Assembly: GCF_001677475.2 (NCBI RefSeq)
Contig: NZ_CP015229.1
Origin: Escherichia coli
GTDB lineage: Bacteria; Pseudomonadota; Gammaproteobacteria; Enterobacterales; Enterobacteriaceae
DNA: 64,000 nucleotides
Strand: one strand, 5' to 3'
A model generated the notes under the pieces. The model did not search any database, was not told the origin of the DNA, and worked only from the letters and a program-made list of their open reading frames with translations. Every line of letters begins with the position of its first letter. Position 1 is the first letter of the stretch. A program made the translations under genes and the position numbers. This document shows, in pieces, positions 8,334-44,722 of the stretch.

Positions 8334-9252
8334 AGATTATTCGTGCGGGCATGTATACCACTGTGCAGGATGGCGGTCGTCACGGTTTTCGCCAGTCGGG
8401 TATCAGCCACTGCGGCGCACTGGATATGCCCGCGTTACGCATTGCTAACCTACTGGTGGGTAATGACGCCAATGCCCCCGCGCTGGAGATCACGCTCGGT
8501 CAGTTAACGGTTGAGTTCGAAACTGATGGGTGGTTTGCTCTGACGGGGGCCGGTTGCGAAGCGCGGCTGGATGATAACGCCGTCTGGACCGGCTGGCGCT
8601 TGCCGATGAAAGCAGGTCAGCGTTTAACGCTTAAACGCCCGCAGCACGGGATGCGCAGTTATCTGGCGGTCGCGGGTGGTATTGATGTTCCGCCGGTAAT
8701 GGGGTCATGCAGTACCGATCTCAAAGTGGGGATTGGTGGGCTGGAAGGCCGTTTACTGAAGGATGGTGACCGACTCCCGATGGGTAAATCGAAGCGTGAT
8801 TTTATGGAAGCGCAGGGCGTTTGCTGTGGGGCAACCGCATTCGCGCCTTGCCGGGGCCGGAATATCATGAGTTCGATCGCGCCTCGCAGGATGCATTCTG
8901 GCGTTCGCCCTGGCAGCTTAGTCCGCAAAGTAACCGCATGGGCTATCGCTTACAGGGGCAAATTTTAAAACGCACCACCGATCGCGAACTGTTATCTCAC
9001 GGTTTGTTACCGGGCGTGGTGCAGGTGCCACATAACGGGCAGCCGATTGTGTTGATGAACGACGCACAGACCACCGGTGGTTATCCGCGTATTGCCTGTA
9101 TCATCGAGGCTGATATGTACCATCTGGCGCAAATTCCGCTCGGTCAGCCGATTCATTTTGTCCAGTGTTCACTGGAAGAAGCACTGAAAGCACGGCAAGA
9201 TCAGCAACGTTATTTCGAACAATTAGCGTGGCGGCTGCACAATGAAAATTGA
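8327..9252 (+). pseudogene. pxpC: 5-oxoprolinase subunit C, reading frame broken near 8819-8821
   Basis: Expected single ~310-codon gene is split into two overlapping ORFs (8327..8968 and 8821..9252) in different frames; both halves look like genuine protein sequence. Confidence 0.6.
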
Positions 9253-28852: not shown

Positions 28853-28951
28853 ATATCTGTAATAAGAAATAGCCCTCGCCGCTTCCCTCTACAGGAATGG
28901 CGAAGGGCTGTCGGTTTCGACATGGTTGGCCATCGTATGATGGCCTTTTTT
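28853..28951 (+). ncRNA. sdhX: sucD 3'UTR-derived sRNA region (SdhX/RybD-like) ending in an intrinsic terminator
   Basis: Two hairpins (agccctcgcc...ggcgaagggct at 28871-28909; ggccatc...gatggcc plus T6 at 28928-28951) directly after sucD stop; position matches the known SdhX locus; sequence identity not verified. Confidence 0.5.
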
Positions 28952-30347
28952 ATGCCTTAAACGTTAACCACGGTCGAAATCTGACCGCTGGCTGAATTAA
29001 TCCGGCTTCTTGTTGAGCTTCGATAACCGGACCAATATCTTTATAAGCCGCTGGCGCTTCTTCAAGACGTCGTTCTTCGCGCAATGTGACGCATTGCCAC
29101 GGCAGCGTTGACTCTTCAGTCACGCGTGAGCGCATGGCCTGCCGACGCTGGCTGCGTCCTGCTCCGTGACTGCATGACCACAGCCACTCCGGGTTGCCGC
29201 AACCTACCGCAAGCCACGAATAATCGCCCATTGAACCAGGGATTAATGCCAGATCACCCACTCGTGCCGGTGTTGCGCCTTTGCGATGAATATTCATTTC
29301 ATGCTCGCGAAGGATGATGTTATGTGGCACATCCACCACCAGATGCGAATTGTCCTGATGAAAGAGATCGGCAAAACATACGCGCACCATTTCGGCAATT
29401 GTGACGCGATTTAACCATGCGTAACGCGCCGCCATCCCCATCGCTTGTAGATATTCCTCCGCCAGTCCACCGGTTAGACCATATAACTCGCTTTGTGGAT
29501 GTTTATGCCCGGCAGGCCAGGCGGCACGGGCGCGATCCATCCAGCGTCTTCCGACGTAAAAGCCAACATCTCGCGATCCACTGTGGATCATCACCACAAT
29601 ATCGCCTGTTTTCAGCCCTTGTTGCCAGGCTACATGGCGATCAACCACGCTATCAACGACCTGAAGTTCAATAAAATGATTACCTGAACCCGGCGTACCC
29701 AGACAAGGATCGCGGAGTAATGCGCGGTCCGTTGCCAGCAGGGCGGGTGGGGCATAACGCGAATGACTGTTATGCTCGTTAAGCCCAATGCAGCGGTCAA
29801 TCTCTTGTACCATTCGGGGGATATTCGTGCGTGTCCAGAGACCTGCTGATGGCAAGGTCGACACGCAATCTGCCGGTCCGTCATCAAAAAGCGCGGTGAA
29901 CGCCTGTGCGGATAACGGAACATCGCGCTCATTTTGCAGTAGCACTTGCGTTAACCGCTGAGCGATGACGTCTTTATGCGCTTCGGCTTGCTCAAGTGTT
30001 AATCCGGTCGTCAGCAGCCGCATGCCACAAGAAATATCGGTGCCGATGGCGGCAGGAATGACTAAATCCGGCGTTGAGGCCACCACCGCGCCAACGGGGA
30101 CGCCATTGCCGGGATGAAAATCTGGCGTCGCGCACGTCTGGCGCACATAACCTGGGTGGTCTGGTAGCTTCACTTCTGCAAAATCAAGCAGTTGTGTTAC
30201 TGCTTTTTCTTCCAGCGGCAGTTCGTCCGGCAGCAGTACGCGGGCACTGGCACCTGATGGACGAGATAATGAAACAATATTGTTGGCGCGGGAAAGTTGG
30301 ATCCCTTTGCGCAGAAAGGCTTTATCAAGCCTTGAAAGATGATGCAT
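28950..30347 (-). CDS. RtcB-family RNA ligase paralog (3'-phosphate/5'-OH ligase family)
   Basis: 465-aa ORF with RtcB motifs aligned to E. coli RtcB from memory: PAAIGTDISCGM, GSGNHFIE, IHSGSRDVG, IPGSMG, SCSHGAGR, AYKDI. Confidence 0.85.
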   Translation of the reverse strand: MHHLSRLDKAFLRKGIQLSRANNIVSLSRPSGASARVLLPDELPLEEKAVTQLLDFAEVKLPDHPGYVRQTCATPDFHPGNGVPVGAVVASTPDLVIPAAIGTDISCGMRLLTTGLTLEQAEAHKDVIAQRLTQVLLQNERDVPLSAQAFTALFDDGPADCVSTLPSAGLWTRTNIPRMVQEIDRCIGLNEHNSHSRYAPPALLATDRALLRDPCLGTPGSGNHFIELQVVDSVVDRHVAWQQGLKTGDIVVMIHSGSRDVGFYVGRRWMDRARAAWPAGHKHPQSELYGLTGGLAEEYLQAMGMAARYAWLNRVTIAEMVRVCFADLFHQDNSHLVVDVPHNIILREHEMNIHRKGATPARVGDLALIPGSMGDYSWLAVGCGNPEWLWSCSHGAGRSQRRQAMRSRVTEESTLPWQCVTLREERRLEEAPAAYKDIGPVIEAQQEAGLIQPAVRFRPWLTFKA

Positions 30348-30938
30348 AACGCTGTCCTGAAATATAGACGTTAAACAACCCCCTGTATTGCGAGGGTAAT
30401 TTTGTCTTTCCGGTCAGCAGCCAGCAAAAGGGAAAGAAAACGCGCGTAGTGTATGTGGCGATAGCAAGTTTTACAAGTGGTAAATCTGGCTTATTGTTAA
30501 AGAGAAATTATCTTTAGCGAAGCCTTTTAAGGCCATGACTCATTCAATTTAACCGGACACAGAGATTATATAACATAGGGTATCTAAATTTATCATTGTA
30601 TACTTGTCATACTTCAAGTTGCATGTACTGCATCGATGTTCGCTCAGCCTGGCCACTTACTTATGTAAGCTTCTGGGAATTCATTATTTGTTGCCTTCCT
30701 GCAACTCGAGTTATTTAGAGTATATTTACACATATGAATAATATACTTACAATAATGTTTTTAAAGTATTGCATGCGGATAACTGAGGTGAAATTCCTGT
30801 TTTAGGATTATTGTCACTTTATTTTCCTGGTTGGACATATAGCTGACTGGTTTGTTTATTTGAATTATGATATTCATTAGTGCTACTGTTTTTTTATAAA
30901 ATAATTTTTTGAATTGTTATTTTTTCACGGAAGGCATT

Positions 30939-41921: not shown

Positions 41922-41984
41922 GGGTAATCCTTTGTAAGACAGAGAGTAAAATAAGTTACACACGTCGTATTTATGGCCGCTCAT

Positions 41985-42468
41985 AACGGCACAGGTTTAA
42001 TATCACAGGAGTGTCTTTATCTGACCGTAATGTTGCAATTGATCTATTTTCAAAATGTCTTTCGGGAAATGATTGTTTAAAGTGTGTTTTCAAATTCTCA
42101 TTTTAATTCAGTGTGTTATGTCAACTAATGTCATGAATGTTAAATTTTTAAAATTAACTTGATTTGATGTATTGAGATAATTGTGATCAACTTCTAATTT
42201 GCATTTTTGTGACGTGGCTTTAGCCATGAGTAAATGCATTTCATAAAAGTTAAGTCGAATTTCACTGCAATTCATCTCTGCTTAATGTAAAAATAATGTT
42301 GAAAATAACAAATAATTAATGATTCATGCGAATTATGACCTTTGTTAGCTCTTTTGATTTTTCGTAAAAAAGAAAAGCACATGAAGGTGCTACCAGTACG
42401 AGAAACGTTAATCAAAAGTTTTATTACGTCTGGCAATAACGCAGGCCATTTTTCGCGACAGGAGGGAT
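41985..42468 (-). promoter_or_regulatory. AT-rich leader/promoter region of the glmS-led operon
   Basis: ~480-bp very AT-rich non-coding spacer upstream of glmS; individual sites not resolved. Confidence 0.5.
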
Positions 42469-42891
42469 TTAATCAGTATAATCCTCATACAATAGGTCAG
42501 GATTTACAGAACCGTTAACGGGGTTTTGGTGTTGAAATTTAGAAATGGTGGAGTCAATCAATGAAGACAGTATCGAAAAAATGACTGTGTCAGAACTAAT
42601 TTCAATTAATCCTTCTCGTTGTTGATCAAAAAAGATATTTATCTTGATTTCATTTGTACTACGGCAATCAATATGTAGTAATTTTTGATCGCTGAGATTT
42701 TCTGTTTCATAAATGTTTTTGGCGATAGTCGGATGTATTGATGCCAGACATCTGCTCAGATAAGCCATATCCTTTAAGGAACTCCCCGCTGAGTAGAGGA
42801 TGTCAGAGAATTTTTGTGTGTCAACTGTTGTCTCTGAAGCGTATGTTGCATTGACAGGAAGAGTATTGAAAGAGATCTGAGATGGTATCAT
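42469..42891 (-). CDS. hypothetical protein (no recognisable family)
   Basis: 140-aa ORF in low-GC DNA, co-oriented with and 81 bp downstream of the 314-aa ORF. Confidence 0.5.
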   Translation of the reverse strand: MIPSQISFNTLPVNATYASETTVDTQKFSDILYSAGSSLKDMAYLSRCLASIHPTIAKNIYETENLSDQKLLHIDCRSTNEIKINIFFDQQREGLIEISSDTVIFSILSSLIDSTISKFQHQNPVNGSVNPDLLYEDYTD

Positions 42892-42972
42892 TATTTAAAT
42901 CTTTCCGTGAGTAATAAAAATTAATCCCCAGGCATTGTTTAGCAATATTTGCCATAGGGGATATATAGAAAA

Positions 42973-43917
42973 TTAAAGTATTTTATTGGCTTCGGTTAAC
43001 TGATCTATAACCAGTGCCAGATTGGTAAACATTTTGAAAAAGCGATACTGGCTCGGAATATCTCTTTCAAAGACGAAACATTCAAGGTCATTGTTTGAAA
43101 AATAAAGGACTAGTGTTGCTGATTCGTCAGGGAAAACATGGAAATGTATCTGGTTACCAGAAGGAGGATAGTCCAGAAGAAGGGTATCTTTGCCCGTCAC
43201 ATACCTGTTGTTGTCGTGGACGCTACGCTCACACTTCATCAGAGGTGTCAGGATACTCATGTATTCATCTGATGTTAATTTATTAAAATCATCATTCATT
43301 TTAAAGAAACGATAAAGTAACAGTACATCCTCTTGCGTAACCGGTTCGTTTGTTTTTAGAGGGAAATAAGCGGGAACCAGAAGATGAGGTTCTAATCTAT
43401 TTTGTTGAGCGCTATAACTGAATTTGAACATAAATTCTGGATCGCTCATCAATTGAGCGACATAATTATGCCTGGCTTCAAAAATTTTAATTTTTATCAG
43501 GTTGAATAAGTCTGTTTCGTCATCCTGTATTAAAAGACATTGGCCATAGCAGCCTGGATTTTTTTCATTATAAGCAGAAACGGTTATTCTGTCAGAGGTG
43601 TCAACGTTATATTCAAAAGCCAGATAGTGACCTTCTTCATCGCGATTTGTTTCCAGGTTATTTAAATTCATCACATGAAGTGTTTGCAATGCTGATTCAA
43701 TGAGTTGTTGACTCTCTGAGGTAAATGTTTTGCGCTGCGTTGTATAAAGTGTATCAATTCCAACGACTATCCGATGTGGATCAAGGATGGCGGCAATCAT
43801 CTTTATTACCTGCACAGTCACGGGTGATGTCATTGATTCTTCATCTGTTTTTAGAGGATCATTAGATGGCCAACCTGAGAAGCGATTGACAGCCGAACCG
43901 ATATTATCTGGACTCAT
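42973..43917 (-). CDS. hypothetical protein (no recognisable family)
   Basis: 314-aa ORF, low GC (~37-38% by eye versus ~51% backbone), no motif I can assign. Confidence 0.55.
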   Translation of the reverse strand: MSPDNIGSAVNRFSGWPSNDPLKTDEESMTSPVTVQVIKMIAAILDPHRIVVGIDTLYTTQRKTFTSESQQLIESALQTLHVMNLNNLETNRDEEGHYLAFEYNVDTSDRITVSAYNEKNPGCYGQCLLIQDDETDLFNLIKIKIFEARHNYVAQLMSDPEFMFKFSYSAQQNRLEPHLLVPAYFPLKTNEPVTQEDVLLLYRFFKMNDDFNKLTSDEYMSILTPLMKCERSVHDNNRYVTGKDTLLLDYPPSGNQIHFHVFPDESATLVLYFSNNDLECFVFERDIPSQYRFFKMFTNLALVIDQLTEANKIL

Positions 43918-44722
43918 AGCAGCAACCTCATTGTAATCAAGCGAGGCGCTGAGCGTACTCGGCTATAGAAAAACTAACTTGCAAAAATCGCTCATTTTTC
44001 ATTTATCAGGCGAAAGTGGCCTCTGTTCACTCAGAAACAATCACTCCCGCTAAGTCATACCTGTTTCATCGATACATTTAAGTGATTATTACTAATGAAA
44101 CAATAACATAACGGGCTTACGGTCGGTGCTCATAAAGGCAACAATCAATTAACTTTGATAAAAATATGTTATGTAAAATAGCAACAAATTGGCTACTCTA
44201 ATCAATTGGTATTATAAAAAGAGGATAAGGCGGTTCTGTTAAATAAAACACTGGTTTTTTATCTATACCTTTTCATTGTAATAATTGTGTTGCATAAATA
44301 TTTCACAATAAATTAACAATAAAATCACCAATGATCTATGGTTTATACATAATTAACATATTTGGTTGGTTTTGATATAAATCAATTTTTAATTCTTGAA
44401 AAAAATCTGCAAAACACGATAAATTGTCGTAGATCAAATTGGTGAGATCGTGACAATTTCGCTATAAATTGATCACTGTCGAAAAATGCAAATTTGCTCA
44501 ATAAAAACCTGTTTATTGTAAGGATTTTGCGGCGTAATATAATTACGGGATCAATTTGGTTTATTCATTAACATATTTGTAACTTTTTTATCATTGTCTT
44601 TTCCTCTTTTGATGAAATGGCAACGATAGAGGCGAGCAAATAATTTTGTATTGGGGCATGCGTGTGACCCTTTCTAACGGGGTTCACTCTCGGAGTCTTC
44701 ATGCGATGAGCAAGGAGTCATG
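43918..44722 (+). promoter_or_regulatory. cydAB upstream regulatory region
   Basis: ~800-bp AT-rich non-coding region before cydA; in K-12 this carries multiple promoters under ArcA/Fnr control (established knowledge; sites not mapped here). Confidence 0.6.

Follow-up and report, generated by a model that had tools for sequence, protein, structure and literature searches.

An AT-rich gene pair beside cydA in Escherichia coli: probable Escherichia-restricted orphan genes separate from the neighbouring glm operon

Introduction

What are the two AT-rich genes that stand between glmS and cydA in some strains of Escherichia coli, and do they belong to the glm operon beside them, to a mobile element, or to neither? 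We addressed this question in a stretch of 64,000 nucleotides of E. coli DNA (assembly GCF_001677475.2, contig NZ_CP015229.1), which is called the window below. The two genes, here named A and B, belong to the sucD-cydA interval of E. coli, in which they occupy the end next to cydA. They are known as ECs_0767 (A) and ECs_0766 (B) in the annotation of E. coli O157:H7 Sakai, and they are labelled hypothetical in all RefSeq genomes inspected and in all named members of their clusters. Our results suggest that A and B are probably genuine orphan genes restricted to Escherichia, which are neither part of the glm pathway nor the cargo of a mobile element.

A preliminary description, made from the letters of the window, had reported two co-oriented open reading frames (ORFs) of 314 and 140 amino acids (aa) lying 81 bp apart. 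The coordinates proved exact, and both genes are on the minus strand, which that description had left unstated. The features of the pair are as follows.

42973-43917, minus strand: gene A (orthologue of ECs_0767), ATG start, 314 aa, encoding an acidic soluble orphan protein
42469-42891, minus strand: gene B (orthologue of ECs_0766), ATG start, 140 aa, encoding a small acidic orphan protein
42892-42972, minus strand: A-B spacer of 81 bp, GC content 0.296, between the co-oriented A and B
43926-43929, minus strand: Shine-Dalgarno sequence GAGG of A, 8 nt upstream of its ATG, read from the sequence

Coding status and selection

Judging from comparisons of the coding sequences, A is certainly a protein-coding gene under relaxed purifying selection, and B is very probably one. 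The lengths of the two frames were compared with chance in first-order Markov simulations (n = 2000) of the low-GC block that runs from glmS to cydA (41985-44719, 2735 bp, GC 0.350). A stop-free run of at least 314 codons was obtained in 0 of 2000 simulations, the longest run being 207 codons, which places A beyond chance. A run of at least 140 codons, the length of B, appeared in 3.4% of the simulations; length alone is therefore not decisive for B, and other support is needed.

The orthologue of A in Escherichia albertii has the same 314 aa with zero indels and 64% amino-acid identity, and the Shine-Dalgarno sequence is AAGG in that species and is otherwise conserved. The nonsynonymous (dN) and synonymous (dS) divergences between these orthologues were 0.22 and 0.56, which gives a dN/dS of 0.39 (bootstrap 95% confidence interval (CI) 0.29-0.54), and a ratio of at least 1 was reached in 0 of 300 bootstrap replicates. 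When A was compared with a divergent E. coli allele (L016), dN/dS was 0.34 (CI 0.21-0.53). For B, dN/dS ranged from 0.14 to 0.27 among closer alleles. Residues 57-113 of B form a core that does not vary, even between alleles with an overall difference of 16%, and the differences from the L016 allele cluster in the N-terminal third and in the C-terminal tail.

On these alignments, A and B evolve several-fold faster than their neighbours. The dN/dS of glmS (0.07), glmL (0.10) and cydA (0.007) is far tighter than that of either gene, and between the window and L016 the identity is 87% for A and 84% for B at the protein level, compared with 97-98% at the nucleotide level for glmS and cydA.

Distribution and history

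The A/B pair was found in about a fifth of the complete E. coli genomes (1135 of 5426), and the other 4291 are without it. In the E. coli carriers the pair is always present once per genome, between glmS and cydA, and the glm operon was also found in 1135 of the 5426 genomes. In K-12 the place is taken by mngR-mngA-mngB, and K-12 and the window become homologous again only from 44347 on, 373 bp before the cydA ATG. Within E. coli, A/B and the glm operon form one haplotype, which alternates with the mngRAB haplotype of K-12. The carriers include O157:H7, O55:H7, O145, strains labelled sequence type (ST) 648 and ST2747, as well as further clinical isolates from humans. In 118UI, ST648, AR_0015 and 14EC033, which come from urine, pleural effusion and other clinical sources, A and B are both intact.

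In E. albertii L003 (a contig) and L014 (the type strain), the order of genes is cydA, the same spacer, A, a remnant of B, an unrelated 258-aa ORF and sucD, and no glm operon was found between A and sucD. The window and E. albertii are homologous without a break from 42865, a point in the first 27 nt of B, across A and the spacer and on into cydA, and most of the listed E. albertii cluster members of A are full-length at 314 aa. Since A stands beside cydA without glm in this species, A and B are part of the locus next to cydA rather than of the glm pathway, and their co-occurrence with glm within E. coli is due to a shared haplotype of a replacement-prone interval. For the same reason, the order of the genes indicates that the A-cydA arrangement, together with the control region that is shared, is either older than the glm operon or independent of it. 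Linkage of the pair to the glm operon, a point raised in the preliminary description, holds in E. coli (1135 against 1135 genomes) and breaks down in E. albertii. The ORF that stands in the place of the glm operon in L003 (11786-12562, 258 aa) has a signal-peptide-like N-terminus and no NCBIfam match, and it is shortened to 114 aa in L014.

The neighbouring operon belongs to the methylaspartate (mesaconate) cluster of O157:H7 (glmS/L/E, mal, fumD, gltP; Kronen and Berg 2015, PMC4682846), and the published description of this cluster leaves out the A/B pair (PMC4682846). A and B resemble the cluster in being adjacent to it and in co-occurring with it in E. coli, but they differ in GC (0.37 vs 0.52) and an AT-rich spacer of ~550 bp lies between. 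A also occurs without glm in E. albertii, and glm without A/B in many enterobacteria; the glm cluster is reported in many of them, including Klebsiella, Citrobacter, Salmonella and Yersinia (PMC4682846), whereas our database searches found no A/B homologue outside Escherichia, including the genera with the glm cluster. Across taxa, A and B did not show the co-occurrence with glm and mal that would be expected of members of the glm cluster.

Neither did the pair behave as the cargo of a mobile element. Phage, viral-contig and plasmid collections contained no genuine A/B match by tblastn and a viral-contig scan, and the apparent plasmid matches were mislabelled chromosomes of 0.7-4.9 Mb. No mobility genes and no convincing flanking or terminal repeats were found around A/B. 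Of the earlier proposal that the pair is separately acquired cargo, the history apart from glm is borne out by E. albertii, while the part about cargo is not, as the genes are not on plasmids or phages and have no mobility genes. An imperfect 24-nt inverted repeat (75% complementary; 42055-42078 and 44035-44058, arms 1956 nt apart) flanks A/B, and is probably a chance occurrence in AT-rich DNA.

Decay of the genes and independence of A from B

Disrupted copies of the genes were found in several side lineages. Two E. coli (L007 and L008) have an intact A next to a B with a frameshift, and B is only a remnant in E. albertii, in which A has its full length in most of the cluster members listed. 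In the E. albertii type strain (L014) a frameshift splits A into 209 + 108 aa. In Escherichia sp. MOD1-EC7003, A and B are both broken by two inverted copies of a 127-bp element resembling the enterobacterial repetitive intergenic consensus/intergenic repeat unit (ERIC/IRU). For Shigella dysenteriae, a truncated B-like protein is listed, which has 103 aa and matches less than half of B. The B frameshifts of L011 look like homopolymer sequencing errors. This repeated decay in side lineages indicates that A and B are dispensable, and the retention of A without B in E. albertii, together with the frameshifted B beside an intact A, indicates that A is independent of B. The preliminary description had asked whether the pair always travels together; in E. 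albertii it does not. That description had also held that frameshifts in relatives or a lack of conservation would speak against translated genes; the frame of A is conserved in E. albertii, and that of B is frameshifted in some strains.

The copies of the 127-bp element in MOD1-EC7003 (L015) lie at 8345-8472 and 9087-9213, where they interrupt A and replace the 5' two-thirds of B. The same element is present in the window at 30599-30725, in the AT-rich spacer upstream of a LysR gene.

These disruptions raise the question of whether A and B are functionless relics, that is, decaying ORFs that have persisted through chance or inertia in DNA silenced by H-NS. The independent disruptions in several lineages fit such a view, as do the elevated dN/dS values of A and B (0.2-0.5, compared with 0.007-0.1 for the neighbours), a diversity of B like that of the spacers, and a length of the B ORF within the range of chance (3.4%). 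However, the bootstrap for A never came to a dN/dS of 1 or more at high divergence, and the 314-codon frame is intact across a dS of ~0.56 in 38%-GC DNA, in which random frames close fast. The invariant core of B (57-113), across alleles that are 16% different, also argues against decay. We consider it unlikely that the genes are relics of this kind.

It could also be supposed that the two genes form a toxin-antitoxin or toxin-immunity pair, in which one product is harmful and the small acidic neighbour neutralises it. In common with type II toxin-antitoxin and polymorphic toxin-immunity modules, A and B are two co-oriented and close genes with a short spacer, and the small acidic product of the second gene is like an immunity protein or antitoxin. 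However, the partners are not co-dependent: in E. albertii A is intact and under purifying selection next to a mere remnant of B, and the two E. coli with a frameshifted B beside an intact A run counter to obligate co-retention. Moreover, no significant match to toxin, antitoxin, immunity or defence models was obtained in Pfam, NCBIfam and PADLOC, neither protein has a domain of such modules, and the pair is a single, non-mobile copy per genome that is linked to no mobile element, Rhs, contact-dependent inhibition (CDI) or type VI secretion system (T6SS) locus. A toxin pair is accordingly very improbable, and the earlier suggestion of a toxin/immunity-like pair, or of an effector/chaperone-like pair if this is taken as obligate, is not supported, A being maintained under purifying selection without B in E. 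albertii.

Homology searches and protein features

From the database searches, A and B are genus-restricted orphan genes with no detectable homologue outside Escherichia. Pfam, NCBIfam, PADLOC, PHROGs and PDB sequences gave no significant match for either protein. Sub-threshold matches were discarded as noise (the kinase PRK07667, E=0.042; Cmr6 of PADLOC, E=0.0096 and 13.9 bits; DNTTIP1, E=0.3). A word-indexed search of 5.8 billion proteins with A, B and a profile of A returned Escherichia orthologues only. An exhaustive phmmer search of 1.84 billion representatives was made with A, B being covered by the word-indexed search; it yielded fragments of the same family and one spurious match, P0062, a low-complexity repeat protein that was the sole match to A from outside. 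In a scan of GTDB species, matches were confined to E. coli-like contigs, E. albertii and Escherichia sp. MOD1-EC7003. The preliminary description had named homology to housekeeping proteins as evidence against its view of the pair, and none appeared in the profile and protein-database searches.

Two contigs from metagenome-assembled genomes, L012 (labelled Collinsella sp.) and L013 (labelled Citrobacter sp.), match this part of E. coli at 97.5-97.7% identity; they most likely stem from contamination during binning rather than from real carriers outside Escherichia. Three apparent homologues of B with 50-59% identity (L004, P0046 and P0047) were rejected as frameshift artefacts of error-ridden assemblies.

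Both proteins are acidic, with an isoelectric point (pI) of 4.77 for A and 4.56 for B, and B is ~15.7 kDa. No transmembrane segment and no signal peptide were found in A or B (maximum 19-residue hydropathy 1.25 and 1.52), and this, with the profile libraries giving no match, agrees with the earlier statement that no catalytic motif, signal peptide or transmembrane segment could be recognised. The AlphaFold models are poor, with a predicted local distance difference test (pLDDT) score of 47 for A and 40 for B; at this low confidence, both show alpha/beta secondary structure and a disordered N-terminus. The content of Ser/Thr/Asn/Gln/Pro in the first 25 residues is 0.44 in A and 0.52 in B, the top two of the 48 proteins of the window (median 0.24); each of the two N-termini contains few charged residues and a single Leu. 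This measure of composition is crude, confounded by AT-richness, and not a validated predictor.

The similar order of elements in the two models (a helix, three strands and a long helix) suggested B as a paralogue of a domain repeated in A. This was rejected, the relatedness of A and B being hhalign E=0.051 (probability 1%) and Smith-Waterman z -0.1 to 2.0 against shuffles. A has no significant internal repeat. The hexapeptide YRFFKM occurs twice in A (local score p ~0.017), and was taken as chance, the repeat being missing in E. albertii.

The polar N-termini bring up the question of secretion. A and B might be secreted host-interaction proteins, for example substrates of the type III secretion system (T3SS) of the locus of enterocyte effacement (LEE) or of E. 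coli type III secretion system 2 (ETT2), or B might be a class I chaperone-like partner of A. Besides having the N-termini richest in Ser/Thr/Asn/Gln/Pro in the window, which are modelled as disordered, the two genes are AT-rich, evolve fast and fall into divergent allele classes, and their carriers include the T3SS-bearing O157:H7 and E. albertii. Class I chaperones typically have the size and charge of B, and the predicted alpha/beta fold of B would suit this role. In effector/chaperone pairs of the Tir-CesT type, too, a larger gene adjoins the gene of a ~15-kDa acidic protein of alpha/beta fold, which the models suggest for B, and such pairs share with A/B the polar N-termini (disordered in the models of A and B), the AT-rich DNA and the T3SS-positive carriers.

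On the other hand, no effector or chaperone family of Pfam or NCBIfam was matched, and for effector or CesT/SycE-type chaperone families there was no sequence match and no credible structural match. The partner is dispensable: A persists without B in E. albertii, which indicates that B is no required chaperone. No T3SS genes lie nearby and the pair is not linked to a T3SS locus, the N-terminal composition is partly an effect of AT-richness, and strains isolated from urine, pleural effusion and other clinical material have A and B intact. Lineages of this kind usually lack LEE. Secretion, with or without a chaperone role for B, is thus quite unlikely in our judgement.

Flanking AT-rich DNA and the cydAB control region

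The pair is embedded in AT-rich DNA, the further features of which are given below.

43918-44346, no strand: haplotype-specific half of the A-cydA spacer, absent from K-12
44347-44719, plus strand: cydAB control region common to K-12 (82% identity); contains a perfect FNR box (44372-44385)
41922-42468, no strand: B-glmS spacer, AT-rich (GC 0.314), which parts the pair from the glm operon

GC content is 0.382 in A and 0.359 in B, compared with 0.503 for the whole window, 0.521 for the glm genes and 0.531 for cydAB, so that the genes are AT-richer than the backbone and the glm genes, as had been reported. With 0.350 against 0.503, the whole low-GC block is AT-richer than the host backbone, as is typical of H-NS-silenced xenogeneic DNA; this composition makes the H-NS silencing suggested in the preliminary description plausible. 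The spacer 3' of B begins at 41922, and not at 41985, when the RefSeq start of glmS (450 nt) is used. The earlier description of long AT-rich non-coding bounds is right about the composition (0.314 and 0.333 for the B-glmS and A-cydA spacers), but on the cydA side the proximal 373 bp are the cydAB control region. From the arrangement of the genes, A and B probably form one transcription unit; no promoter-like site was found on the minus strand of the A-B spacer. There was no Rfam match between 41500 and 45000 of the window. Downstream of B, at 42376-42391, lies a weak terminator-like hairpin with a stem of 5 bp and a folding z-score of -0.16. Other E. coli do not preserve the stem, and the hairpin was not used as evidence.

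The A-cydA spacer is 802 bp long, and its cydA-proximal 373 bp are the control region shared with K-12. Over these 373 bp the allele of the window is 82% identical to K-12, compared with 96% for the cydA coding DNA. The allele is 94% identical to that of E. albertii and near-invariant among carriers (nucleotide diversity (pi) 0.6%). The position of the FNR box, TTGATATAAATCAA, agrees with that in K-12. Repression of the K-12 cydAB promoter by H-NS, antagonised by ArcA, was reported by Govantes et al. (2000; cited in PMC3708157), and cydAB is described as being under H-NS/ArcA/FNR control (PMC3708157).

In a set of ten E. coli-type sequences, the A-cydA spacer was the least variable part of the low-GC block, its cydA-proximal half having a diversity of 0.6% and its haplotype-specific half one of 1.1%. 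The corresponding values were 2.3% for A, 3.25% for B and 3.5% for the two remaining spacers. A block of ~90 bp (~44134-44213) is almost invariant between E. coli and E. albertii, with flanks ~77% identical. Its conservation makes it a candidate promoter/operator of A, or a distal element of cydAB, and 43918-44346 presumably holds the promoter of A. The ~90-bp block also contains ArcA-like GTTAATTGATTGTT repeats.

This position suggests a further alternative, namely that A and B are accessory regulatory proteins for cydAB, respiration or anaerobiosis, such as a divergently expressed anti-regulator. In E. coli and E. albertii alike, A invariably lies next to cydA and is oriented away from it; the 802-bp spacer is the most conserved part of the block, including the haplotype-specific half with the ~90-bp block; and the cydA control region of the carriers is an allele of its own, with 82% identity to K-12. 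Nevertheless, the adjacency may be mere physical linkage, and conservation of the spacer is expected from the regulation of cydAB alone. Both proteins are acidic with no DNA-binding or signalling domain, and 4291 of 5426 E. coli genomes regulate cydAB without the pair. A regulatory role of this type is distinctly unlikely.

Interpretation of the gene pair

We favour, with some reserve, the reading of A and B as genuine Escherichia-restricted orphan genes of the cydA-proximal end of the interval. A, probably with B, would be transcribed divergently from cydAB out of the AT-rich spacer, and its expression and that of B would probably be low through H-NS-type silencing. The products are predicted to be two soluble, acidic, alpha/beta proteins with polar disordered N-termini, and A would work independently of B. 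Since no profile library gave a catalytic signature, the proteins may most likely bind other macromolecules and would not be enzymes. Our best guess at their function is that of conditionally expressed, non-enzymatic, soluble acidic proteins, and the caution of the preliminary description about function was appropriate.

Several findings weigh against this reading. No sigma-70-like promoter for A was found on the minus strand of the A-cydA spacer. The dN/dS of B against the L016 allele is 0.49 with a CI of 0.27-1.07, the upper limit of which passes 1, and the nucleotide diversity of B (3.25%) is near that of the flanking spacers (3.5%); for these two reasons the coding status of B is less secure than that of A. 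Pseudogenisation that recurs in this way would also fit genes with little or no function today, and the patchy distribution could reflect homologous recombination between Escherichia lineages and not ancestry. In addition, a literature search by locus tag and accession found no paper naming either gene in the library that was searched.

Orphan genes in AT-rich, H-NS-type silenced segments of Enterobacteriaceae provide the closest likeness to the pair. A and B share with this class the low GC (36-38% vs 50%), the restriction to a single genus, fast evolution, patchy presence among strains, frequent pseudogenisation and the hypothetical labels. They differ from it in having no recognisable mobile element, and in their fixed place beside the control region of a core operon in two species. 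A and B are an ordinary case of lineage-restricted AT-rich orphan genes and no recognisable new system.

There is a small chance that the pair is instead a new, fast-evolving Escherichia-specific family acting in biological conflict or host interaction, its expression wired into the oxygen-responsive region under H-NS/ArcA/FNR control that it has in common with cydAB. The products could in that case be secreted type III substrates of LEE or ETT2, or modulators of a host or phage target, and they would be switched on in the micro-aerobic gut.

For annotation and for work on the glutamate-fermentation island, it is useful to treat A and B as selected genes that stand outside the glm pathway and are no toxin-antitoxin pair. 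A distinct allele of the cydAB control region travels along with the two genes, and their fixed place next to this region provides a testable link to oxygen-dependent regulation.

Variation at the sucD-proximal edge

At the other end of the interval, a 465-aa ORF resembling RtcB-family RNA ligases lies directly downstream of sucD in the window (28950-30347, minus strand), and it scores under the NCBIfam cut-off (207 vs 407 bits). This ORF is missing at sucD in Sakai and in 118UI, the latter having only a 255-nt hypothetical ORF there, which indicates that the sucD-proximal edge of the interval is variable too.

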